Counted from the first letter of the whole stretch, positions 2,884-47,327 are shown. The stretch: DNA of 48,769 bases, filler included, from Sphacelaria rigidula (GCA_964200075.2; 3 parts of 3 records of this genome joined end to end with filler, not necessarily neighbours in it), one strand, 5' to 3'. Notes: generated by a model from the sequence alone, not told the origin. Made by a program: numbers and translations.

Positions 2884-3054
2884 CAAATAGTTCGTAACCC
2901 CTCGGCCAGGCAGGATTCGTGTCTGGTGCATCTCCTTCCGCTGCGACGGCTGTAACAGCGCCGTCTGCATATTCGGCGGCGTGGCCTGGGTGGACCGCCG
3001 ATTCTCAATTATCGATGCCAAGTGCTGAAGCCCAGCCCTGGCGTCAGGTGATTC

Positions 3055-6000
3055 TTGGGTCCTTCTGCAGGCGTGGTAACTGTCGATCGCAAGGCGGAAT
3101 TTTTACGCGCAGATTTTTCCTTGCCTGGTTCCGTAGGTTCGTTCATGGTCTGCGTTATTCTGGATTCTGGATCCGCGCTCACGTCGATCGGTGTGGGGTT
3201 GCTAGAACAAATGTCTTCAGAGTTTGGCAGACTCAGCTTCAGATCCCGTTCGAAAATGGACCGCAAACGGTACAGAACGCCACGGGTGCTTCCGTGACGG
3301 TAACACATAAAACCGTGCCGATTGCTGTTAGCGTGCGTACGCCTTGGCGAGCTGTGGAGTTACAGTCCATCACGTTCGCTGTCATGCCCGGCAGGGACAA
3401 CGTGGTTCTGTTTGAAATGGCGACGAGGTAGGAACTCGGGATTGATTTGTATCCGCTGGTGCTGGATAAGTTACGCCCGCGTGCTGTGCCGGTGCAAACC
3501 GGCGTGGAAAACCCCAGCTATTATGCTGCGAGGCATGTGACCATATCCATAAGGTCATTTCAGAGCTTCAATGAGAAGGAGGCTCCTGCGGATGAAGTGG
3601 TGAAGCGCTTGGTCGATCGGGAGCCTGGCATGTTCATGGACCCAGCGGAGGAGAAAGGTGCAGGAGAATGTGCGCTAGAGGATGGCGTGCAGCAGGCCGA
3701 GCTGAAGGGGCTGAGCGCCGATGGCGAACATTTTCTGCGTAATATTTTGGCTCGTCGCGTGGATACCTTTCGTCGTGCGCTGCGTGGTGACCCGCCAGCG
3801 CGCGTAGAGCCCATGAGGGTGCAATTAAAGCAACAGGCAAAGGCTTCGAAGGCCAGGCCCCGACGTGATGATTCAGTGAAGACCGGGTGGCTTGCTTCAT
3901 ACATTGCAGCCTTGGTGGCGTTTGTGCCAGTGACTAGGAACACCCAGGCTGTGTGGGCGAGCCCGGCGATGGTGGTGCCGAAGAGGGACACATTCCGTTT
4001 GGCAGCGACTATCAGGCGGTGAACGCGCAAGTGGAACAGTCTCCGGGGATGATGCCAAGCCAAGAAGACATGCGGAGGTTGCTGGGAGCCCAATGCTCCG
4101 GCAAGTTGGACCTGCTACAGGGGTATTGGCAGATGCCTCTGGCGCCTGAGGCTCAGGAGATCTTGATGGACGCCACGTCTGACGGTTTTTTTACGTCTAC
4201 GCGTGTCCCGCAGGGCGTGTTGAACGCCACGGCGTATTTCGAAGGTATGCCGACTGAGATTTTGCGAGGTCTCAACTGTAAAGTGTGGGTAGATGATTTT
4301 TTCTATTTTGCTGAACCCGACGAAGCACCCTTAGCTTTGCTTGACGAAATTCTTGGACGCTTGGAGAGTATTGGTCTTTTCGCCTCTGCGCATAAGTGCA
4401 CTTTTTTTGCCCGCGAAGTGGTTTGGCGTGGTAAGGTGTACCCCAAGGGTACTGTTTCGCATGATCCCGTCCGCGTACAAGGTTTGAGCAATATGCGACG
4501 TCCTCAAACCGCTAGTGAGCTGATGCAGTTTCTGCAGGCGGTGAATTGGTTGCGGATTTCGCTCCCCCATATGGCCGAAGTAGTTGAGCCGCTTCGTGTG
4601 TTGTTTTAAACAACTTATGGTCGGGGCTTCGCGTCGAACCAAGCGAGTGACGCGTGCTCGTATCATCCCGGAGGACGCTTGGACGAAGGATCGTGTGCGG
4701 GCATGGCGTGCTGCGCAAGACTTGGTGGCGCAAGCGGTGCCGCTGTATCATCCTCGTCCAGGGTGCGTTGTTCTAATGTTCCCAGATGCTTCGGATTTCC
4801 ACTGGGGTAGATTTTGAACGCAAGTGCCTGTCGCAGAGTTTAGAAGTGGCATTGCGCTCGAAAACATGTCACACGAGCCGTTGGCGTTTTTGAGTGGTAG
4901 CTTCAAGGGTTCACGGTTGCGGTGGGCGACAGTTGACGAAGGAGGTTTCGCGATAGTCAATACATTTCGAAGACTGGAGTACTTGCTTTGGGGTAGTGTT
5001 CGCATTTTCACCGACCATCGCAATCTGAAACACATTTTTAACCCCGAAGAGTGTGTCACATCGGTGACGAAGGCCATGGCGCAACGACTTGAAAGTTGAA
5101 AAGGAGTGCTCGGCCAATATCGGTATGCCATTGAACACATTCTTGGAGAGCGCACTTGTTGGGGAGATTTGTTGCCTCGCTGAGTGAAGGTTCCTACCGT
5201 GCCTTTTCGCTCTATTGCCGTGTACAGCCTATGTCATGCCGATGATTCGCTGCCCTCGTTAGATGTCATTCGTACCACACAGCGCAAAACAGTCGGCGAC
5301 GGTATTTATTCTTCTTCCAACGACTTTCGAGCAAGCCGCCTTGGCTGACGATGGTCTGTTCCGCGTGCGTGTTGGCAGTAGTGATGTTTTGTGGATTCCG
5401 TCGGATGCTAAGGCTCTACAAACTCGATTGATGCTGTGCGCTCACATGCCGTCGGCTGGTCACCGTGGTGTGGCGCCGACTCTGCTTCGTTTGAAAGAAT
5501 ACTGTGTGTGGCCTTATATAAATTCCCACGTTCGCGAGTTCGTTCGCCAGTGTTTGCATTGTGTAGACACTCGTGCTGGTGCGATTGTACCTCCCCTGTA
5601 TGACGATACTGTGCATGGTACCGCGCCAGGCGAAGTTGTTTCCTTTGATTTTCTGTACGTCGGGAAGAGCGCACCTGAAGGTGCTAATGGTTTGCCTGAT
5701 GAGGATGGTTTTCGGTACGTTCTGGCCATCATGGATGATTTGTCAAATTTAGTTTAGTTGAAGCCGACCGAGGCTTGCACCGCCGAGGTTACGGCTAAGC
5801 ACTTGCTGCATTGGTGCAAGACTTTAGGGGTGCCGCGTGGGTGGGTTAGTGATACCGCCACGCACTTCGAGAATCACGTAATCGCGCAGCTGAGCGACGT
5901 GCTCAAGGTACAACACCAATTTGCTGTTGCGTATATCCCTTGGTCAAATGGTGCTTGTGAGCGCATGGTGAAAGAGGTTGTTCGTGCGTTACGGTCCATT

Positions 6001-6592
6001 TTGTCGGAAAAAATACGGCTGGTGTATGAATGCGTTGATGTGTCATCAGCCTCTCAGTGGGCATTGAATACTTCTTTTCGTGAACGCTACCGTAACACTC
6101 CATATTGTGTGATGTTTGGGCGTGCGCCGCGTACAGCGTTTTCCGCGCTGGCTTCTTTCACTGGCGGCGAGTGGAACGTCGATGAGATGGATGCTGATAC
6201 GTTGCGTGACAAGGTTCGAGACGTGGTTGACGAGTAAGTTCGGTTTTTCAAAGAAGTGCAAGCTGCTGTCGCCGTGTCTCGCGAGACCAAGCGAAAGCTT
6301 GCTCAGGGACAAGCTGTGTTACCCAAGTTTGCAGTGGAAGATTTCGTCTTGTCCGTAGGCAAAGTGTGACGCCCAGGTTGATGTCCACATGGACGGGTCC
6401 GAGCCGATCACGCTCACGTGTATTCGGTGCAGAACACTGTTTCTGGCGCCGTACACTCGGCACATGTCGCTCGTTCGCGTTTTTATGCTGATTAGCAGTT
6501 GCACATCACTGCGGAAATAAAGGATGTATTCCAGCATTCGTATTCTCAACGTGAATGTGGGATGGATGCTTAAGTGCACGTCGCTGAGGGTG
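3055..6592 (+). pseudogene. pol: pol of element A: aspartic protease, RT, RNase H, integrase (many stops and frameshifts)
   Basis: Protease ILDSGS. RT KLDLLQGYWQ, RVPQG and VWVDD. RNase H FPDASDFHWG and IFTDHRNL. Integrase zinc finger AH..GHRG..CLHC and core SFDFLY / VSDTATHF / SNGACERMVKE. Confidence 0.95.
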
Positions 6593-7008
6593 TGTTACGG
6601 CAGATATCGGCTATACCAATAGTGGACGTTTCGAAGCACACATGGCATGTGCAATAGGTCGTATTCCATTCGCATATTAGTGTTATTCTCCAGTATGAGA
6701 TGTTACGTGCCCAGTCTCTCACAACTTTTAGCTACCTAGCCAAGCCTAACAACAAAGCTATCAGCCACCACTTGGAAAACATCTTGCTTGCAAGCAAGTC
6801 AAGGGCCCTCTCTGCACACGAAAGTGAGTCTTGCTTGGCCTTATGATGCAGTGCTGGTCGGACTCAAGGGTCTGTTACTCACGAGTTCAAAGGTCGTTCC
6901 TCTCGACTTCAATTGCTCATTGTCGCCAGTCGCTGACCTCGGGTCATCCCTGGCCGGGTGTTTTCTTTGAGAGTAAGGCCTGTATCACCTCGTGATCAGA
7001 CCACGACA
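6593..7008 (+). repeat. 5' LTR of element B
   Basis: TGTTACGG...CCACGACA followed by TGG. The first ~215 bp are ~93% identical to 14012 onward. Confidence 0.88.
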
Positions 7009-12640: not shown

Positions 12641-14011
12641 GAGCAGCGCTTTGTATTAGTATTTTATCCTTTATATAGTAATGAGCAGTAGTTCAGTACT
12701 GTTGGAGCAACTGTTCTGTATTCACTTTTTTTTCTACTCTCTTGGGGTCTGTTTTCACTCGTGTTTTCCCGTTGATCATGGGCTCGGTTACATATCTTGT
12801 ACCGTTCCCGGCTTTATTTTCTCACCTTACAACGTTTGATTTTGATTTGTTTTTTTGGGGGGGCGCCGTTTCGATTTGTTTGCCTCGTTTTTTTCGGATC
12901 AGAATTTCCTCCTCAGGCCCTCATATTTTTTTTCTCTGTTCGGTTTTCTAGTCTGGATCTTATTTGTTCTTTATCCTTCAGCCGTTTTGCTTTCTCTTGA
13001 TTTCGTAGGACCTGATCCTATTTCTCGTGTCAGTCCTTTTGGTTTGTTCATGTTTCACGAGTTGTTTTCTCGTACTATGGACGTGGTATGTTCTTTCTAG
13101 TTTCCTTCATGTTTTAGTTTCCTTTTTCTCCTTCTTTTGTTGTGGGCTGGTTCATTCCTCCAGCATTATTTTTTGGATTCTCTTTTCCTTCCCACCTTTT
13201 CGCGGAGTTGATCTTACTCCGCTCTTCGTTCTATTCCCGGTCTTGAATTTTTCATGAAAATTATTTATTTCGTGGTTTTGTCAGACCTGATCCCACCGTT
13301 TATTTCATGCACCCGGTTCATTCATCACGTTTCTTCGTCCTCGGAGAACGTTGATCTGATTTTTAGGGTGCCCCACCCCTTTCGAGTAGAGCAAATCATA
13401 TCGTAGAGTAAGCATTGTACAAAGAGGGTGGGCACCGAGTACCTGCTTGGACACTGTACCATGACGGAACTGTTGGTCTAAGATTTAGGAGTCCCCCGGT
13501 GTCCAGTAGGTCAGTTGCTGCTGATCGGTTAAAGAAAATCCTACGCACCCCCATCAACCAGTAATGCTTTCTTGGGGGGTTTTCAGTGGGTCAGCTCTTT
13601 TTGGGAGTCCTACACTACCCAGGATTGATGTAAATCAATCAAGGGTGTCTAAGCGCCGTTACCATCGGAAAATAGTCGCCGGCTATTCTCCGTGGTTTCG
13701 GTTCCCAGTGTAACTGGGATCCCGGGACGACATAGCACATGCGAAAGCATCCGCTATGATCCGAAAGGGCGTGAGAGATTTTTTCCCCAAGCGATGAAGC
13801 TTTGTCCTGAAAGCCAGGTTTTGCCCATCCTTCCGATTTCATGACAAGTGTTTTCCGCGCTTAGTCTCGGCCCCGAAATTCTGCGGTTTTCTCGTCGTTG
13901 ACGTGATCTTGAGCTGATGGCATACAGAGTTGAGGGAATTCCCCCGGTGTGCATCAAGCTGCGACTTTCTTTACCTTCCAGTAGCAGCGTGCACAAAGCA
14001 AGGGAGGGAGG

Positions 14012-14419
14012 TGTTACGGCAGATATCGGCTGTACCAATAGTGGGCGTTTCGAAGCACACATGGCATGTACAATAGGTCGTGTTCCATTTGCATATTAGT
14101 GTTATTCTCCAGTATGAGGTGTTGCATGCCCAGTCTCTCACAACTTTTAGCTACCTAGCCAAGCCTAATAACAAAGCTGTCAGCCACCACTTGGAGACAT
14201 CTCGCTTGCAAGCAAATCAAGAGCACTTCTTCTGCACGTGAAAGTAAGGTTGTGTTTTGCATCATGTATGCAGTGCTGGTTGAACCGAACTCTTCGGTGA
14301 GTCTCTGGTTCAGCACAACTGCTTGCCTGCAGTAACGGTTACGCTGGCCGCTGGTGTTTCACCACCCCCAGCCTATGTCCCACGAGCTTGATACGCCACC
14401 CTGAGACTCGACAACGACA
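14012..14419 (+). repeat. 3' LTR of element B
   Basis: PPT immediately upstream, TGTTACGG start, ..CAACGACA end followed by the TSD GGTG. Confidence 0.85.
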
Positions 14420-28495: not shown

Positions 28496-29739
28496 ACACT
28501 GTGAAGCAGCCCCCGCAGTGTGTTCACTTGCTCTGTGTGTTGTGAGTTTTGTTCGAGGTTATGCCTTTCAATGTAATATGCGAGCATGTAGAGAGCATGC
28601 GCGAGTGCACAAACGAGTTGGTGCAGAGAAGGCGCATTCCTGTGATTCGCGCCCACTTTGGAAGAAGTTGGCCGTGTCTTGTAATGGATTTCAGGCCGTT
28701 GGTTTTGACGTACGTGGTGTACATTTATCGAACACTGCTCTGTGAGTGGTTTTGTTCACCAACCGAAGTGTCATCCCCTTGTGCGGTGTTGTCTAAAGCT
28801 TTTGCAGGCGTCCGGTGGTCCGCAGCAAAGCTGCAGGGGTAGATGGTTCAGAGTACGTTGTTGGTTTTTCCATCTCCGTTTGTTTATATTCGCTAGCGTC
28901 CCATCGTCTCGAAAACAAAATTGGAGTTCCTGACGGCGGTACTTTACTGACACATGAATACACATAATAAATGAAGTTAGAATTCCTGACGGCGTTGCTG
29001 ATACGTACGTACCCGAGTAGGCAGTACAGCGTCCGCTCTGACGGATTGATGCTATGTACACACTACAAGGCTATCGCTCTACAGGACTGCAAGAACAATC
29101 ACTGTCAGGTCGGAATGAGTGCCAAGGTCGGAATCAAGATGACGTACCGTATCGCCCTGTCCGTCGTCTTGGGCCATATTCTCCCCTACGGTAATATCTC
29201 GCCGCCCATGCTAGTTCGTCATACCTCATCGCTTTCCCCTTTCATCACCATTCCAAGGGTGGGTGTTTATCTCGTTATCTGTACATACCCGTAGCCCGCG
29301 AAGCGGTAAGTTCTTGACTCGACACGGTTTTTTGTTTTGAATTCGCTACACCCTTGTGTTGATCGGCAAAATCGTGGAAATCGGCGAATCAGCACTGATT
29401 TCACCCGATGTGCACTACCGCTGTACGTTACCGCTAATCGACGAATTTGTCATCCGATGTAAAATGGGACTGTGAAAAAAATATTTACTCCCCGCTTGAG
29501 CTCATCGGCGACTTTTATTTTTTTTCCGTTCGTGCTCATCGATGAATCTGTCATGTTTTGATCCGACTAGGGCTGCACCTGTACGTTGGCTATGATCGGC
29601 GAATTTGTAAAAGTAATTAATTGGTGCGTTACGACGCGACATACACAGTCGTGCGTGGTGATCGATTTTTTTCTTTTCCTCGCGCCATTTGTTTCGTTGT
29701 TGTCCTCAACGATGATTTGGGAAGTTTTGACTCTTTCAT

Positions 29740-30170
29740 GGTGCAGATTGTGATTCGTTGAATTTCACTGACGATCCGACGTGAACAGCCGGTATAAAAT
29801 CATGCTCATTGGCTGATTTATCGAATTTTACTCCCCGCTCGTGGTCGTCGGCGAATAGGTAAATTATCCCCATGTTTTGGTGCAGATTTCGATACGTTGC
29901 ATTTGTCGGTTGAGCCGACGTGTATAGCCGCTCTACAATCGTGCTGACGGTCAATTTTTTCAAACTTTACTCTCCGCTCCTGGTCATTGCGGATTTGTAA
30001 ATCGGCCCTATTTTTTGGTGCAGATTGCGATACGTCACATTTTTCGGACGAGCCGACGTGTACGGCCGCTACACGATCGTACTTCTCGGCTATTTGTTTC
30101 GATTTTTACACCCCGCTCGTCCTCGTCAGCGAACTGGTGAATTCTCCCTCCGACGGACGAACCGATTTGT
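29740..30170. repeat. Degenerate ~139-bp tandem repeat (3 units, more diverged copies upstream to ~29350)
   Basis: ggtgcagatt..gat at 29740, 29879 and 30017; tttac(t/a)c.ccgctc at ~29827, 29966 and 30106. Confidence 0.75.
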
Positions 30171-32483: not shown

Positions 32484-32583
32484 NNNNNNNNNNNNNNNNN
32501 NNNNNNNNNNNNNNNNNNNNNNNNNNNTTAATTAATTAANNNNNNNNNNNNNNNNNNNNNNNNNNNNNNNNNNNNNNNNNNNN
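32484..32583. other. Assembly gap spacer
   Basis: 100-nt run of Ns with TTAATTAATTAA in the middle. Confidence 0.99.
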
Positions 32584-33915: not shown

Positions 33916-35850
33916 TCATGAGTCAACTACTTCCCAAGCGGTGCCCGTGTTCCGTAGAACGGCTGTTTCGAGTTCGCCTTGGTCGTGTCGTTGGAGGCGC
34001 CAGGATCCCCTCCAAGCGGTCGGCTCCTCGGTGTAGTACGCATCATCCAAGCGAATCTTAAGGGGGCTCGGGTCATCAAGGAAACGGATAAAGTAGGAGT
34101 GGTCAGATGCAGGATCGACCGAATGAATTTTACCCAACCACCACAGTGAATCCAAGGCCTTACACCAAAAATACGCTCCTTTCGGCAATCGCTTTCCGTG
34201 AAAACACTGCATGTATTGTGAACGCGAAAGGAGGCTATAGCCTGTCACAACAAACCGCGCTGAGTGTTCACGTGCCAGTTCCCGAGCGGCAGCTCCCTTG
34301 CGCATCGACCTATATCTCTTATTCAACAAGCAGTGTTGAATGGTATCTCCTACCCAGTACAGTAACATTTCCCGACGAATATGACGCAAATCAACTTCAC
34401 GCTCCCATGTAACACGCATGATACCCTTCCAATGTGTCTGATACATTACCGCTATCTTACCTCCACGACCGCGAACCAGTTGATGACCCGAAATCCTATT
34501 TACCTCAACGCGTTCTAGGGGTGCATCCGCATCCTCGACTGTCATATGATACGGCGGAGTTTTGATCGCATACTTGGTCAACACATACTGGCTAAGCCCT
34601 ACCGGCAGTTGTTTCGGCATGTCAGAAGAGTCATGAGGGGAGATACACGGTTTGCATCGTAGCATCGAGACGCGATTTTTCGGTTTCAACCCAGGTTCAT
34701 CCGTGGGAAAATCTAAATACAAAAGTTTCGTTCCCACCGGACTCTTGTCGGGTGCGGTAGCGCTTGGACCAACAGCTAAAATTTCCCAAGGACCAGTCCA
34801 ATTCAAGGATAGTTTTGCCTTCAACACTTTATCCAAAGATGATGATTTTGAGCTAGCCCCTTGATTGATGGTCTTCGCAGCGTCATACATCCATGCCCAT
34901 TGGCCTACCTTCCACACCGGGCGGTTATGCACCATATCATCCGACAACGAGTTCGCCCTGGCCACCTTGGCCAAATTGATTTGGTTCTGTTCTCGTACCA
35001 CTTCATATGCAAGACGAAGACGATTGCTAACCGACAAATGAACTCTGCAATATCACGATCCAGACTCTGATGTCCACCTGGATTTTTGCGTTCGAATACC
35101 GTTAAAGGTAACCTAGGCATGCGTCCAATATGAATTTCATTCGGCGACAATCCCGTAGCGGCATTAACTGAATTGTTGTAGATCATCTGGACAAGGGACA
35201 GGTGCAGATCCCAGTCCATCTGTCTCTCATTTGGTACAGCAGCAGGCATCTGTGGCATCGTGTGGTTCACTCGTTCCGTTCCACCATTGTTGGAAGGGTG
35301 ATATGAACTAGTAAAAATGCGATGGGCACCCCAAAGGTCACTGACGGCGGCTGAAAGTTTGCCTGAAAAATGCGGGCCGTTGTCCGATAGTAAGCGTTTG
35401 GACACACCCCACAGTGGGATGTACATGTAGAAAAGGATGTTGGCGGTATCTTACGCGGTATAACTATTGGGGGGAACGGCGTGCATCACCGCATGTCGGC
35501 TAAATCTATCCGTAAACAACAAAATATACTTATTTCCACTATCCGTCAGGGGCAAAGGACCAAAAAAGTCTCACGAAACTACTTCACCTAGCCCGTTTGG
35601 GAGTGGCATGGAAACAATCGGCCAACGAACTGTTTGGCGTGAACGTTTTCGCGCCTGACACAAAAGACAACGCCTCACCCACCAACGACAACACTGATCC
35701 ATACAAATCCACCAATAAAAACCTTCCAACATCTAGGAGGTCCTAATGGGGCCTAAATGAGCGATACCTGTGAATGGCATTCGTGTAGAACCCATGGGCG
35801 CAGGAGCATCGGAACATAGACGCGAATGGGTTCATCACCTAGCAAGCGGG
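33916..35850 (-). pseudogene. Element C integrase with GPY/F-like motif, chromodomain and an extra C-terminal domain
   Basis: Core LLSDNGPHF and NGGTERVN; WTGPW; chromodomain-like VNRISGHQ..MYQTHWKG..TWERE at ~34388-34510; GAYFWCK..WWLGKI..YFIRFLDD at ~34072-34179. Confidence 0.9.
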
Positions 35851-36623
35851 CATGTTGATTTGTAGGCTCCCCCCTGGGGAAGGCTGCTGTGGGCCGGCGA
35901 ACTAACAGAACTACTCCATCATCATCCGTATGTAGCATACCTTTCCTTAAAAGCTTAGTAACTTCATCCTGGGTGGGCGCTTTGAGATTCCCGACTGGCA
36001 AAAGGATGTCGGTTTCTGAGAATGGACATGGACAACCTTTAGATAGATAATGGATAGCTGATTTACAAGCAGGTTCTGCCTGTTGTTCCCGGGTCCAATC
36101 CTTGTGGGAGAAGAGAGTCAAACGTTTCTTGAATACACCATCTGTTGAAGCGTTTACTTCGTGTGGGGTCGGTTCGGGGCGGGGTTGGCACGAAGCGGTG
36201 ATATCGGAATCAAGGGTGAGCCTACCAGTTGGTGTACTCTCAGACGGAACGTTAACATCTACTCCTGCGTCGATTAGCGTGGAGGGTGTTGTGGTGATGT
36301 TTGCAATATCATCACCAATGGAGGGGGGCACAGCCGTGGTTTCGGTTTTGGGTGGCAGGGGCGGCACGGTCGGGGTCGAGTTTTTGGGGGCCTTGCGTCG
36401 CGGAGGCTGCGGAGGCGCAAGGAAACTATCGGGGACCGGGGTGGGGGCAGGGAGGGGAAGGTCAGGACCAGATACGGCTAATTTGGTGGCCGTTTTGGCG
36501 GTTCGCCGTCCACGAGTCCTACTCGAAATCAAATCTCGAACTTGAACTGGTAAGACGGAGTCAGGAAAGGACGGTTCTACACCTGCTGCGAAAATCATGC
36601 GCTGGCCAGTTGCACGAAAATGA

Positions 36624-39200
36624 TCATAGCCAACAGTATTCGTAGTGGGCAGTCCATTCCAAACTGAGTACAACGATTGAGGTTGCAAGCTGCTTATGAA
36701 AAGCCGGCGTTTCTCTCAGTGAAAGTGGTGTGTAGAGATCTCTATGTCCATTTCTTCTTATGAAAGACACAATGTCTTCGGTGGGATCGGTGACACGTCC
36801 CATGGTGGATTCATCGATAGGTTGAGCTGGTGTGGGCAAGCGTGACAGGAAGTCGGCGCTTGCAATCTGGGGACCTGTGCGGTACTTCAGTTGAAAGTTG
36901 TAAGACGACAGGATTTCGAACCAGCGTTGGACCCTAGTGTTGTGTTCCGCCATTTTGGCAAGGCTTTGCAAAGACTTGTGATCGGTATACATCAAAAACA
37001 GGATGTCATACAAATACTGACGCAGACGTCGCACGCCCCAGACAACTGCGCCGGCCCCTTGTTCCATGACAGACCAATTCTGTTCATTCGGGAAAGTGGT
37101 GCGACTCAGATAGACAATGGGACGAACAGTAACATCGACTTGCTCCTGTTCTAATGCAGCCAAACCCAATTTTGGAAGAATCTGTGTGGAGCCGGAAAGG
37201 GCGGGAACCCTGCTCCGCGGCCGACCAGTCGAGGAAGACGAGAATAGGCGGGCGCGAAAGGGTGTCAAGGAGGCGGCGGACGGTTTTTTCCATTTCCAAT
37301 ATGAACACAAATTTCACCCCTTTTTTGAGGAGGGTGGTGAGGGGTTTTAGCTTTTGGGCAAGGTTTGGCAAGTACTGTATGTAGTAGCTTAGACCTCCCA
37401 ACAAGGAACGCAGTTGAGAAATGTCCCGTGGCATGGACATATCGGAGAGTGCGGCGACCTTGTCGAGGATTGGGCTACGACCTTCGGGGGTGATGCAATG
37501 ACCCAAGAACTCAATCTTCGTGGCGCCAATGCGGGATTTGGAGGGTGCGAGGTTCAAGTTGTGTTGTTCAAACCGATTGAAGGATGATGCCAACTGTTTG
37601 ACGTGTTCAGCCGGTGTGGAGTCGTGGCATACCGCGTCATCAAGGTACATATGGCATTTGGGCAATCCATCAGTTACACGGAACATTACACGTTGAAACG
37701 CCCCAGGAGCTCCGGCGGCACGTCGGGGTGTAACCAACCACTCGTACAAACCTGATGGCGTGCAAAACGCTGTCAGTCCAATGGAATTTGAATCCATCAC
37801 GAGCTGGTGGTAGCCGTACTGCATATCAAATTCGAAAACATTTTACCCCCGCCAAGAGAGTCAATAATGTCATCAATCCGTGGAAGTGGCAGCCGGGCGA
37901 TTTTGGTGACAGCGTCCAATCGTTGATAATTGACCGTCAGTCTGATTTTGCCATTCTCCTTACGGGCGATTACTAAAGGCGAGGACCACGGAGACGTTGA
38001 GTGCTGAATCAAACCGGCAGATAAGTAACCATCGAGAATTACCTGGATCTTATCCGCTAGGAGGGGGCTCGTACGGTACGGACGCATAGCGCTAGGCGGA
38101 GCGCCATCAGGAATCTTGATATTAAAGGGTGTCGTGGTACATCAACCTAAATCCAAGGGTGCCGTAGAAAACCGTTCAGAATATCTAATCAGGATGGATC
38201 TCAATCTATCGATTACAGTGGGTGTCCAGTCGTCGCCAGAAATATCAAACACAATATGCCGTAAGTGAGGGGGAATGTCATCCTACAACTTTTGAAAACT
38301 GGCGCGTTGTTCCGAAGAAAATCTATCCAGTAATGCAGTTGGAGTATGAGGGTCAGGCGCATCTGGTGGGTTTGTCATCACCATGGGATCAGACATGTGT
38401 AGCGGAGGAGGGCCCGTGGATTTCGGGGGGTCGGTCGGCGACTTGTTGTTCGCCGGGGGGCACACATCTGACAGGGCGGTTCGTATGAGAGGCGCTTGAG
38501 CATAACCCAACAACCGATCGTTGAGTATATCGAAACATGCAGGGGACGTGAGGTAAATGGCCTGCCTACCTTCGTGGACAAAGACTTTGGTCTGTTCAAA
38601 CGGACCAACCTGTGGTTGCTCAGGCTTGAGCGACTCGACCAAATAATGTCCTGTGCGGGCGGGCGATTCATTGCGTCTCACGAGGTTCACCTGAATTAGT
38701 TAGGGGTCACGAGAAAGCGAGACTACAGGTTCACCAACATAGTATAGACGGAAAGCATTACCGGTTTGCGTGGGGTCATCCTCGTAAGCATGAGCTCCCG
38801 AATCAGTGTCGAAGTGACCCAGAGGCAGTTTGCCTGTGACTGGATGGTTCGGGACAGGTGTGTCCGTCGTATACGTATGTCTGGAAAAACGAAGCCAACT
38901 ATCTCGTCCCAACGAAACATCAAAAGACATGGAACCGTCGGGCACCATTAGTCCCAATACGGACAACCGAGCAGTGGGAGTAGTATCCTGGTAGAATTGT
39001 ACACTTAGTCTCACCGATTGATTGACCGTAAGAGATGTGGAGGAACCAAACCCACCAAACACACGAGGGTGCACGGTCGACAGACAATGCTCGTCCGCCG
39101 CGCCCGCGTTGATCATCTGTGCGTGGTGTTTCACCCTTAATGGCCAACAGAGGGGGCGAATCGTCACTGTGCAAAGCGGGAGCAATTACATAATCCAGCT
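36624..39200 (-). pseudogene. pol: Element C protease, RT and RNase H (frameshifted)
   Basis: Protease FDVSLGRDSW. RT STSPWSSPLVI, LPRIDDI, GYHQL, TAFCTPSGLYEW and YLDD. RNase H FRLHTDSS and YTDHKSL. Confidence 0.93.
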
Positions 39201-42200
39201 TGGTCGGAACAGGGGACGATTCATCGGGGCGCGGTGTTGAGGTTGATACGCCAATCAACTCAATACCATCACTAGTCAGGGCCAACATGGGAGGTTTCGG
39301 AGATGATTCGTCAGGACGCGGGGTTGGTAAAGCTGTACTGTCCAACCCGGCGTCTATTGAAGGGGCCGACGTGGGCGAGTTAAGAGACGAGTCGTCTTGC
39401 GTGACACTTTGTTTGCCTGGTAGCGATTGAGGTGCCTTCATGACTAGGATGCGAACGTCCATCAGTCGGCGAAGTCTCTGTCCCTACAGGCGGCAACGCT
39501 CATCGGAAATGGGTTCTAACGTAGTGCACGCGGGGTGGTTAGCGAGCAGTAAGGATCTGGTCGAAATCTGGGGAGTACCGGCCTGTTCCACTCGAAATTT
39601 TTCATCTGTTTGAGCCCACACGCAATCTCTTCCTTGGAGTTCACGTGCGCTTGCTACATCAGGGTTATGTACATGATCATCTGGAGAAGCCCGCCAAGGG
39701 TGACGCGTGTAGCGCACGAAAGGGTTGGCGACTCCAGGAGCTATTGAAATGAGTTCTCGGGCAGTCGAACCTAGGTCACGCTCTTGGCGCACCACCTGAG
39801 TCGCTGTCACTTGGGCTTCCATTCCAACCTGCTAGGCGACGGAAAGCATGGGTTCTCTGCGGTTGCGACCCTTCAAGGAATAATTACGCTCATCAAATAA
39901 AAGGGAACCGGGTACCGTAGTTTTTGCGGAACTCGGTAGGGTGGTTAGCCGGGCACTTGAGCAGTTGAGGGGTGCTCGAGTGTGTGGCTTTGAGTTTCGT
40001 GTTCCCCGATGAACGGTCGGAGCAACAGTGTCTATCCTACCAGAAGATATTTCAGCTCCTGATGCGTGAGAAACTGCACTACATGACTTCCTCTCCTTCG
40101 AAAGGAGGGGATTCGAAAGAACATGATTAGTACCTGATGAATGTAAAACTGGGTGATCAAATTCAGGGTTAAAACGTTGGGTTTGGTCACTGCTCAATTG
40201 CTAGCCATGCAACGGTGCACGGGCTTCGACTGTCTTGGAACCCTTCAAGGCAGTGTCAGCATATCCAGGGAACCCACACCACATGGTTGAACCCGCGGTG
40301 GCCACCGCTGATTTGTGCGTGTGATGTGTGTGACCTGGCCGAGCGAAAACAAATGGTTGACATAAAAATGTTGGATACTTCTGCAGTGAATTACCGGTCA
40401 GTGTTCATTTCTAATTCGGGGATTGTCTCAACCAATGAGAAATCAATTACAGAAGTAGAAAATAAACAGGCTGGCGGCGGGGCTTAGGTTTTGGGCTAAG
40501 CAACGCGTCCTGGGTGATCCCGCTGTATGCTATTTGGAATCTCCGGAACTTGTAGAACGTTCCCAAAAGGTTGTCAAGTTGTGAAGTGAGCATCAATAGT
40601 GTGTGGATACCGCCCTGGCGGGGTTCAGCCGCGGCACTAGGTCCACTCATGTGAAACGTCTACAGTTTTATGACTGAGCCGGTGCATGTGATTGAAAGTG
40701 TGCGAGGTTAGGTGGGTCAGGCGGTGAATCAGTTGTCGCTTCTGGAGCGGAGCAGGCGACCGTACGAACGCAGTTGTGATTGCCAGACTTGCCAACATAG
40801 TCCAAAATGACGCGAAGCTTCCAAGTGTTTTTTTGTCAACAGCTTATATTCTTGCTCCGCCATTTCCAGAGCCTTCGTGGATTTGCGTATCGTGCGTTCT
40901 AGTTCATTCTGTTCTGTTCGCTTTTGTTCGGGGTGGACATCTACATTATGGGAGGCCTGAGCGGGCTCCTGGACCCTTGTAGATACCTGTAGGCGGGAAA
41001 ATTCCAACTCTCTGTGCTCGAGTTCCATGTGGTGTGCGAGATCGTTACTGTGGATCTGATTCCATCACGCTGTTCGTTCAGCCACTGAGAAGTTGTACCA
41101 ATGGCGCGGTGGAATGAAGGCTGGACGCTTTTGCCGAAGCCGGTCGTGTGTTTCGTCACGCGTGGGCACGTATTGTTCCAATGTGGGCGACGTTTCAAAA
41201 GCCAGAGTGGGGCGATCAGAGGATTCAGCACCGGTTTGGGTGCGGAGGTTATTGTCAGGAAAGGTTTTCGTAGCATCAGGGCTCACGTGGAGAGAGGACA
41301 TCTGAGAAGGAAGAGTGGGAATACTGTCAGCGGTTTGGGTGGCTGCTTGGTGTGTAGTGGTATGTTCACTGAGGGAGGGGGGGTGAGCATGGGGAGGACA
41401 ACTACGGTCCTCATCGAAATCGTCAGCGACATCTCTGAAAATGTGCCCTGCAAGAACGCTATCATCGTCGTCGAAACAGTCCGGTTCGTTGTTGTCAACT
41501 GTCTCACTACGCATGGTTTGGGTTGACTTGTATGGTTGTTCACCATTGTCTGTAGGGATCGCACCGTTTTTCGTGGCATCGTGCTTCGATGAAGTCGAAG
41601 GGCTGTTGATATCAGACATTGCTTGTACACCTGCGCAATTTGCGCTAGACCGGTAACGTAGTGATGCGGGGGCTGAAAAGTGAATGTTTCGTCGTGGGAG
41701 ACAGCACAGTTGTTGAAGACTGAGGCGGAGCGAACAAAAATAAAAGAATTAGAGTGGCAGGGTACTGTCGACCGTTTTCGATCGACATGTAGGGCCGCGC
41801 ACTCCGCACATGTAGCGGTCTATCACCTTTTTCATCAGGTGCAGACGAAAGGAAAACAAAATGTCGAGGGCACACAACAAACCGTATGTGTGTGTGTGTG
41901 TTGGTGGACAAAGTGTAGCAGCAAAGAGAGAAGGAAGAAAACGAAAGTTGTCACAATCGACATATAGTGGCTGTCATCAGCGCAACAGCGCATTGGACAA
42001 ACTTGCATGCCATGAAGGGATATACGCGTGGGACGCAACGAACCGCAACGTCAAACCGCTCAGTTCTGTCGTGTAAACATGTTGAGGTTGAGAAAAAAAA
42101 AAACTACCGGATGCCGTGTTTCCAGAGGCAATACCAGCGCAGCTGGCGATACTTATTACAGTACCGCGTAGTTCGCTGAAAATAGCCGAGTCGGGGGTCG

Positions 42201-45916: not shown

Positions 45917-47327
45917 TCCCGTGACCACGAGGGTAGGTCACCTGCTGACTCGGCATTGATTTCAGTACAAAAACGTCTGCCCGATCCAGCTGGATTGCCC
46001 GCATTGCTGTCTACGGGTTAACCCCGAGATCGCGAGGGTAGTCCATCTGGATCATGCACACTTTTTTCGAGAGAAAATGATGCCAAGTCACAAATGACCA
46101 ACTCTCTGCGTATAAGGGTTAACCCCTAACCCCTTGATGGCAAGAATAAAGAATAGGGCATATGTTGAATCGGCATCAATTTTACTCGAAGAAGGAACGC
46201 GTGATCCAGATGGACTACCCTCGCGGTCTAAGGGACGGCGAGAGTAGGTCGTCTGTTGAATCGGCATCAACTTCAGTTGTAAATAGTATGCATGATCCAG
46301 ATGTACTACCCTCGCTGTCCGAGGGTTAAACCGTGCTGCGGGTAGTCCATCTCGATGACGTATATTTTCTTCTAGTAAAAATTGATGCCGATTCAGCAGG
46401 TGACCTACCCCCCTCAGTCTAAGGGTTCAGGTGCGTGCTTCAGCGTTGAGAGCATGTCGACGAGGTTTATTCGTGCCCATAGGAGTGGGCTGTCATAAAT
46501 GAACGAGTCTAGCGATGGAAAGTTAGGTGGCGGCTGCCGCGGACCCTCCCAACGCGGTGTTGACGACAACATGTCACCGGGGTGAGTTTTCAGTCCAGCC
46601 CGTTGTTCGTGTTAAATACATCGTGGGGTGTGTGACGACCGTTTTTATCGACAAATGAAACAAATGGGAGAAGGTCTGGAATGCCCGCATTTACCTAAGG
46701 CTCTTTATCATCCACATCTACCGTTGCTGTTAGATATCCCCTCACAGATGTTGCTGGTCTCGTCGTTGCTTGCCTGCGCGGGAAAAATAAAGGCCAGGGT
46801 TATGCTACCTGTCCGTGTATGGCGTTCATAGTTGTGATAAACATATTTCTCACAACCTCTCGGTGACACGGGGGGGGAGGGGGGAAGTCGGGCTGGCTAG
46901 GACGTGATCGATAGCCTCTCTCGCGATGCTCAGCACCACACATTGGCAAAAATACTGTGTGCGGTTTCAGATAATGCACTCCCGGCCTGTCCTCTGGCTT
47001 CACAAACCAGTACAGTTAACCCTTAGACCGCGAGGGTAGTCCATCTGGATCGTGCATACATTTTTCAGGTAAAATTGATGCCGGTTCAACAGATGACATA
47101 CGGTCGCTGTCTAAGGGTTACCCTTAGACAGCGGTGCGGGTAATCCATCTGGATTTCGCGTATATTTTTCAAGTGAATATTGATGCCGATTCGGCAGGTG
47201 TCCTACCCTCGCGGTCTAGGGGTCAACCCCTATAGACGGCGGGCGCAGCCCATGTGGACGATGAATACTTTTCTGAAGTGAAAATTGATGCCGACTCAGC
47301 AGGTGACCAACCCTCGCGGTCGAAGCG
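45917..47327. mobile_element. Array of eight ~100-bp piggyBac-like MITEs joined mostly through TTAA, split by ~590 bp of unrelated DNA
   Basis: TIR consensus CCCTTAGACCGCGAGGGTAG / CTACCCTCGCGGTCTAAGGG. TTAA at 45913, 46018, 46119, 46326 and 47016. Orientations are mixed. Confidence 0.85.

Follow-up and report, generated by a model that had tools for sequence, protein, structure and literature searches.

A chromodomain and a predicted Tudor-like barrel in tandem behind the integrase of a brown-algal Ty3/Gypsy family

What does the long open frame at the end of a broken retrotransposon in the brown alga Sphacelaria rigidula encode, and could its product influence where the element inserts? The question arises from a stretch of 48,769 nucleotides (GCA_964200075.2; three parts joined with filler, hereafter called the window), on the minus strand of which positions 33916-35052 are open for 378 codons from stop to stop. 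It belongs to a broken Ty3/Gypsy pol, of which it forms the 3′ terminus. Its translation from 35037 (33916-35037) comprises 373 residues (P0001), the numbering of which is used below. An earlier note, made from the sequence alone, had delimited the same 373-residue frame and proposed that a Gypsy integrase with a chromodomain continues there into a PWWP/Tudor-like module, the two together forming a dual reader of methylated lysine. The frame is as described, the peptide quoted from it lies at residues 287-323, and the chromodomain-like block (approximately residues 179-229) is followed by 144 residues, compared with the ∼150 estimated before. The C-terminal features discussed here, with residue positions in the predicted models and the predicted local distance difference test (pLDDT) as measure of confidence, are the following:

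34351 to 34503, minus strand: chromodomain of three strands and a C-terminal helix, the cage of which looks degenerate (P0001 residues 179-229)
34201 to 34320, minus strand: helical linker (residues 240-257) and short strand/helix (residues 267-279) leading into the barrel (model 1: helix 76-93, strand 103-105, helix 108-115; blocks with pLDDT 95-97)
33985 to 34173, minus strand: predicted Tudor-like five-stranded β-barrel (P0001 residues 289-351) with the conserved motifs LWWLG, RFLDDPGP and GSWCLQ.H
33955 to 33972, minus strand: short helix after the barrel, residues 356-361 (model 1: helix 192-197; model 2: helix 117-120)

The tail across the family

Residues 170-373 matched 13 proteins at an expectation value (E) ≤ 1e-3 among 720 candidates, the best of which was 89% identical and stems from Sphacelaria rigidula. 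When the tail alone (residues 230-373) was compared with 1.84 billion cluster representatives, 236 were matched at E ≤ 1e-3, 75 at E ≤ 1e-10, and 5 at E ≤ 1e-30; a profile search yielded 129 proteins at E ≤ 1e-5 among 8000 candidates scored. As both residues 170-373 and the tail match many proteins, the frame of P0001 is no chance open reading frame (ORF). The named sources of the matches were all brown algae (Sphacelaria rigidula, Ascophyllum nodosum, and Nemacystus decipiens).

Conservation was assessed in an alignment of 99 sequences (A2), 24-89% identical to that of the window and many of them decayed copies themselves. W291 (85 of 98 sequences), W299 (82/96), W300 (88/97), G302 (84/96), R318 (80/96), F319 (76/96), D321 (77/96), P323 (80/95), and W346 (65/83) are retained in most members, and position 315 is occupied by tyrosine in 70 and by phenylalanine in 14 of 97. 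Eight barrel positions are aromatic in at least 70% of the sequences, with a mean frequency of the top residue of 0.79 versus 0.54 at the other barrel positions, and all five of positions 291, 299, 300, 315, and 319 are aromatic in 48 of 93 sequences. The W, WW, Y, and F positions that had been picked out from the window copy are, thus, conserved across the family (W291, W299, W300, Y315, and F319). Conservation extends into the linker, where R246, A250, R252, and R256 are kept in 71-77 of 86-90 sequences.

The tail is also found in frame in relatives with an intact integrase. P0165 (693 aa) carries, in a single frame, Integrase_H2C2 (8.4e-14) and rve (5.8e-9), followed by the chromodomain-like block and then the tail. 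Six further proteins cover 95-97% of the 209-residue module (residues 165-373), five of them (P0203, P0204, P0210, P0232, and P0233; 642-799 aa) with precomputed rve and H2C2 and one (P0211; 610 aa) with rve only. In all 18 aligned C-termini the domain order is identical. A word search for longer fused forms gave none at E ≤ 1e-3; two near-full polyproteins, both ending in the chromodomain and the Tudor-like module, came from a cluster look-up. One of these (P0312; 2071 aa) shows the order NADAR (YbiA-type, N-terminal; E 2.9e-36), RVT_1, RT_RNaseH, Integrase_H2C2, rve, chromodomain, and Tudor-like module; the other (P0302; 1849 aa) has the same order with no NADAR match and may be N-terminally cut. 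In the relatives, the H2C2 finger, the DDE core, and the C-terminal region thus lie in one Pol frame downstream of reverse transcriptase and RNase H, as in a Ty3/Gypsy integrase. The C-terminal tail is a conserved feature of this family and is fused in frame to the integrase in intact copies.

The family is also highly repeated in the source organism of four public sequencing runs (two smaller ones are only presumed to be RNA), as indicated by the high number of contig pieces that aligned at a likeness of at least 80% to the 1137-base stretch containing the frame: 2430, 1996, 105, and 54, with 30 of 30 bins covered. With a family this abundant, statistics on insertion sites should be feasible. 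At 121 positions nearly all family contigs differ from the window; among the 40 of these that were listed, 20 differences are synonymous and 20 non-synonymous, and 16, 6, and 18 fall on codon positions 1, 2, and 3, respectively, which may be taken as a weak hint of constraint. The non-synonymous ones include residues 292 (Y in 67 of 98 members) and 347 (C in 60 of 82), the two conserved positions at which the window copy departs from its family. A scan of metagenomes for family copies returned only two loci, at ∼50% identity.

Predicted folds and a proposed tether

AlphaFold2, supplied with A2, modeled residues 165-373 (209 residues) with a mean pLDDT of 90.0 and a predicted template modeling (pTM) score of 0.80, the five models ranging from 78.9 to 90.0. 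The elements follow in the order three strands, helix, long helix, short strand, helix, five strands, and short helix. A model of the tail only (residues 240-373; alignment of 64 sequences) contained the same elements (pLDDT 84.9; pTM 0.76). Irrespective of which model was used, Foldseek placed the Tudor domains of PHF19 and PHF1 on top (probability 1.00; template modeling [TM] score on the target 0.62-0.71; root-mean-square deviation 1.9-2.5 Å over 47-52 columns; 31-33% identity). Tudor-type or other Royal-family domains made up 34 of the 50 VIA rows obtained with the tail-only model, as judged from the entry titles, and several extended Tudor domains aligned over 75-83 residues, the leading helix included. 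At the sequence level, the family profile matched the PHF19 Tudor domain in the PDB with E 0.0065-0.0089 and that of PHF1 with E 1.5, the other four of eight matches being SH3 domains of ASAP1 with E near 1-2; the single window sequence reached the PHF19 Tudor domain with E 0.068. The ESM Atlas gave only low scores for the tail (Spin/Ssty and PTM_DIR17_Tudor, 0.76), to be regarded as leads only, and the Tudor families of Pfam matched none of the 99 members at E ≤ 0.1. The predicted model contains the five-stranded, SH3-like barrel of ∼60 residues that characterizes the Royal family. We describe the tail as a Tudor-like barrel of the Royal family that is extended at its N-terminus by a helical segment.

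Could the tail nevertheless be something else? That it is a non-functional read-through product or a chance frame might be suspected, as stops and a frameshift upstream make the window copy a pseudogene. Yet hundreds of relatives keep the tail, down to ∼30-40% identity, intact long ORFs terminate in it, and it is modeled at pLDDT 85-90; conservation and fold together refute this extremely improbable reading. A more serious alternative is a PWWP domain, which would read H3K36 methylation together with DNA, like those of LEDGF and DNMT3, and it was to this class that the WW motif had seemed to point. PWWP domains are marked by a P-W-W-P-type motif where strand 2 begins and by helices that pack as a bundle behind the barrel. 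In the tail, the motif is L-W-W-L-G, with L and G where PWWP has prolines, and a single short helix instead of a bundle follows the barrel in the models. Moreover, the Pfam PWWP family was matched at E ≤ 0.1 by 0 of 99 members, and Polycomb-like Tudor domains ranked above all PWWP entries, in the two Foldseek searches as well as in the search by sequence profile. For these reasons the tail is called Tudor-like and not PWWP, the latter being very unlikely. Because the barrel fold was found and the aromatic positions are conserved, the two outcomes that the earlier note had named as fatal to its proposal (a missing SH3-like barrel, or aromatic positions varying across the family) did not occur; the architecture it described is supported, with a Tudor-like label favored over PWWP.

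The chromodomain is likewise recognized by its predicted fold, a three-stranded antiparallel sheet packed on a C-terminal helix, for which the fold matches are chromodomains. By profile, PF00385 (gathering threshold 25.1 bits) gave no match on the window protein at E ≤ 1, and sub-threshold matches in 6 of 99 members (best E 2e-4; 17.1 bits in P0031); P0205 carries a precomputed PF00385 label. The three aromatic cage positions of HP1 map by motif to residues 177, 203, and 206. Position 203 is tryptophan in 31 of 35 sequences. At position 177, 14 of 16 sequences have V, I, L, or M (R and F once each), and at position 206, 21 of 36 have L or I and 3 have F. As positions 177 and 206 are mostly aliphatic, the canonical cage looks degenerate, and the chromodomain may act mainly as a scaffold or as a second contact.

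For the barrel, the HMMER alignment to PHF19 places W300 and F319 on two of the four cage positions of that protein, and D321 on the acidic residue that follows the third cage aromatic. Other conserved aromatics, namely W291, Y292 (consensus), W299, Y315, Y335, and W346, could complete a pocket. Because aromatic and acidic residues are conserved where part of the PHF19 cage aligns, the Tudor-like barrel is, from its sequence, the more probable candidate for a reading surface of the two domains. The idea of a dual methyl-lysine reader is not supported as formulated, since by motif mapping to HP1 the chromodomain keeps only one of its three cage aromatics and, by alignment to PHF19, the barrel two of four.

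As the Tudor-like module also occurs in other proteins, it is an autonomous unit. P0040, P0193, and P0044, non-pol proteins of 612-832 aa that are homologous to one another over their full length (29% across 672 residues), have the Tudor-like module alone; it forms their C-terminus, behind coiled-coil-like and Arg/Ser-rich regions, and they show neither a chromodomain nor a Pfam match. The part of the module that P0040 and P0044 have in common starts at about the GY.LV strand. The N-terminal part of P0040 gave no usable match in the ESM Atlas, and the three proteins could represent a host donor, a gag-like ORF, or another transposon. P0088 (626 aa) contains the chromodomain and the Tudor-like module behind 430 residues of other sequence. 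In P0029, a gene model of Nemacystus decipiens, TIMP and WSC domains are joined to the Tudor-like module; this is probably a chimeric gene model including a transposon fragment and not a real fusion.

What could such a tandem do for an integrase? Chromodomains of chromoviruses tether integration, and lentiviral integrases likewise borrow the PWWP domain of LEDGF. We propose that chromodomain and Tudor-like barrel together act as a chromatin tether of the integrase, biasing insertion toward chromatin with a particular mark, and assign this reading a probability of roughly 0.6. In this family the integrase is extended by a compact module that runs, in the models, from the chromodomain over a long helix and a short strand-helix pair to the five-stranded barrel, and both domains would act as a single rigid tether at the C-terminus. 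Once the element is reverse transcribed, this tether would hold the complex of integrase and DNA on nucleosomes, or on a chromatin protein, bearing the mark, and integration would be biased to that chromatin.

Several observations weigh against this proposal. The Foldseek hits have E ∼3e-3, short of the tool's 1e-3 line. In Pfam, the tail stays below the gathering score of every family, with sub-threshold matches to Agenet in 8 of 99 members (best E 0.0018) and to SH3_VIII-1_N in 11 of 99. The chromodomain lacks a three-aromatic cage, position 177 being aromatic in only 1 of 16 and position 206 in 3 of 36 sequences. In the barrel, A294 occupies the first PHF19 cage position and the fourth lies beyond the alignment, and the copy in the window is broken, with no flanking repeats found. 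A rival reading is a Tudor/SH3-like barrel that does not read histone methyl-lysine at all and instead contacts nucleic acid (like C-terminal SH3-like domains of integrases, or the PWWP domain of Shuguo), a methyl-arginine protein (like extended Tudor domains), or another host protein, or serves integrase multimerization. We consider this unlikely, because the nearest matches by both sequence and fold are readers of histone H3K36me3, the conserved F-x-D-D after strand 3 coincides in the HMMER alignment with the aromatic-plus-acid pair of PHF19, and the module is fused directly behind a chromodomain. Reader domains are, furthermore, reported at the equivalent position in Gypsy elements of the same algae in the passages of PMC12477816 consulted.

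If the tandem is a tether, as we favor, which mark would it recognize? The analogy with PHF1 and PHF19 makes H3K36me3 a candidate. Ectocarpus possesses this modification. According to the passages of PMC12477816 on chromatin, Ectocarpus lacks H3K9me1/2/3 and H3K27me3, the usual ligands of chromodomains, as well as DNA methylation, and H3K79me2 and H4K20me3 are associated with repeats. The reported absence of these marks would fit a chromodomain that lacks its usual ligand cage and a second reader that has taken over. More tentatively, the lineage might have kept a chromodomain with a decayed cage and added a reader related to Polycomb-like Tudor domains, specific for H3K36me3 (or H4K20me3 or H3K79me2), as one rigid bivalent unit that would steer new insertions to a particular type of chromatin, such as transcribed gene bodies and introns; P0040 and P0044 would then mark the host donor or a second chromatin binder encoded by the element. 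This detailed scenario is possible but rather doubtful.

The window copy and its surroundings

Further upstream in the same element, remnants of the remaining pol domains are discernible:

34645 to 34908, minus strand: integrase C-terminal region (KLSLNWTGP... to RCKPC), in the frame shared with the reader domains and conserved in two alignments (A1 and that of the 18 C-termini)
35040 to 35759, minus strand: remnant of the integrase zinc finger and catalytic core with three in-frame stops, parted from the C-terminal frame by a frameshift at ∼35040
36624 to 38141, minus strand: RNase H and reverse-transcriptase remnants of the same pol in several frames (Pfam matches; tblastn of polyproteins P0302 and P0312)
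33916 to 39134, minus strand: whole recognizable Gypsy pol remnant (tblastn; P0312 residues 244-2059 on 39122-33949, P0302 residues 80-1838 on 39134-33937)

P0312 aligns to this remnant at 38-61% identity. The intact integrase P0165 aligns in two parts, with residues 80-319 on 35759-35040 (76% identity to the window core) and residues 320-689 on 35040-33931. In the window, Pfam detected RT_RNaseH at 36624-37313 (E 1.8e-22) and RVT_1 at 37084-37842 (E 4.5e-14), and the rve family gave no match on the integrase fragment. The region at 34645-34908 is presumably the GPY/F module. Near 34645-34700 (minus strand; residues ∼113-131), between this region and the chromodomain, lies a strongly conserved stretch, D..G......RV...RCK.C..P.D, with two near-invariant cysteines. 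A long proline-rich spacer (35753-36715, minus strand) separates RNase H from the integrase zinc finger; in the intact P0312 and P0302 it comprises ∼400-450 residues, which is unusually long for a Gypsy pol, and matches no Pfam family.

The repeat search of the window revealed no direct-repeat pair that flanks the element as long terminal repeats (LTRs); a gap of undetermined bases (32484-32583), just past the 3′ end, may hide the end of the element. Given three in-frame stops, the frameshift at ∼35040, and no LTR pair found, the window copy is a pseudogene, a dead fragment, and the claims made here therefore concern the family. NADAR gave no match better than E 0.7 in the window and none upstream of pol (39134-40500), and a second copy of the chromodomain/Tudor-like module was not found within the window.

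Other repeats are present in the window. At 2900-6400 (plus strand) lies a second, different Gypsy-like remnant (RVT_1 at 3938-4606, 1.1e-11; Integrase_H2C2 at 5263-5754, 3.9e-11), which is only 24-27% identical to the family studied here and after which no chromodomain/Tudor-like module was detected. A 278-bp direct repeat pair with 89% identity (6586-6858 and 14004-14280, plus strand), 7.4 kb apart, could be LTRs or solo repeats of another element. Tandem repeats of ∼139 bp, three copies that are 65-75% alike, occupy 29712-30098, and direct and inverted repeats of 85-180 bp cluster near 46-47 kb (46017-47313).

Relation to known systems

Whether the architecture had been described before was left open in the earlier note. 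In part it has: fusions of integrase to a chromodomain and to a Tudor domain were published in 2025 (PMC12477816), in the passages available as separate lineages, and the tandem was not found there. In these passages, Ectocarpus harbors four Gypsy lineages, all with reader domains fused to the integrase. Three have C-terminal chromodomains, one of them being ECR-1, and are unrelated to chromoviruses and Chronos; NADAR occurs in one lineage only, at the N-terminus of Gypsy-12_Ec32, which has a C-terminal chromodomain. The Gypsy-10_Ec32 lineage, called the first transposable element with a Tudor domain, carries that domain at its C-terminus and has a homologue in Tribonema minus.

Because P0312 combines an N-terminal NADAR with a chromodomain, the present family points to the Gypsy-12_Ec32 lineage, with which it shares the chromodomain after the integrase of a brown-alga Ty3/Gypsy element. 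This comparison is by description only, and by that description Gypsy-12_Ec32 has only a chromodomain at the C-terminus, whereas here a Tudor-like module of ∼130 residues follows. With Gypsy-10_Ec32 the family shares a Tudor-type domain at the C-terminus of a brown-alga Gypsy Pol, and it might be argued that the element is simply this published Tudor lineage, reported for Ectocarpus with its homologue in Tribonema minus, and new only in a chromodomain that went unmentioned. This is improbable, as P0312 has both NADAR and chromodomain, the two domains that the passages of PMC12477816 assign to the Gypsy-12_Ec32 lineage, and as the Tudor element is listed there as a lineage separate from the single NADAR lineage, with Tudor in place of the chromodomain and no NADAR assigned to it. 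A chromodomain in Gypsy-10_Ec32 would, moreover, probably have been reported, because the authors used InterProScan or HHpred along with inspection by hand (PMC12477816, same passages).

To our knowledge, no chromovirus has a second Royal domain after its chromodomain. In the literature searched, with PMC12477816 covered by passages, no integrase was found to be reported with a Tudor or PWWP domain behind a chromodomain. The tandem seems to be a new form of the fusions between readers and integrases that were recently reported from brown algae; it extends and does not overturn the account given in 2025 of Ectocarpus Gypsy elements with chromodomain and Tudor fusions, as read in those passages. 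Integrase-fused readers are the clearest natural cases of transposons that let chromatin state decide where they land. Brown algae represent a multicellular lineage of their own, and how transposons are targeted and silenced in Ectocarpus is named an open question in the parts of PMC12477816 at hand. Tandem Royal domains, one apparently cage-less and one close to H3K36me3 readers, constitute a testable probe; the family could reveal which marks define "safe" or preferred chromatin in brown algae, and in what way integrases exchange and stack their reader domains.

The Tudor domains of PHF19, PHF1, and MTF2 (PDB 4bd3, 6wau, 4hcz, 6wat, and 5xfr) are the closest known relatives of the barrel by both sequence and fold, with 31-33% identity over ∼50 residues; W300, F319, and D321 align with cage or adjacent residues of PHF19. 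The first cage tryptophan of PHF19, in contrast, aligns with A294, and the alignment does not reach its fourth cage position. The algal module further differs by the leading helix, strand, and helix, by the conserved GSWCLQ.H fifth strand, and by its fusion partner, an integrase instead of the PHD fingers of Polycomb-like proteins.

Like the chromodomain-integrase fusions of MAGGY, Tf1, CRM, Chronos, and ECR-1, the family carries its chromodomain directly after the integrase C-terminal region, where a role in target choice is presumed. Plant group II chromodomains lack the first and third cage aromatics, and the single aromatic retained in the algal family resembles their state. ECR-1 of Ectocarpus, in contrast, keeps all three cage aromatics, according to the part of PMC11541908 consulted, compared with one in this family by motif mapping. 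The parallel to LEDGF/p75 and lentiviral integrase would lie in a Royal-family barrel that links the integrase to marked nucleosomes; there the reader is a host protein acting in trans, whereas here it is encoded in cis and is closer to Tudor than to PWWP.

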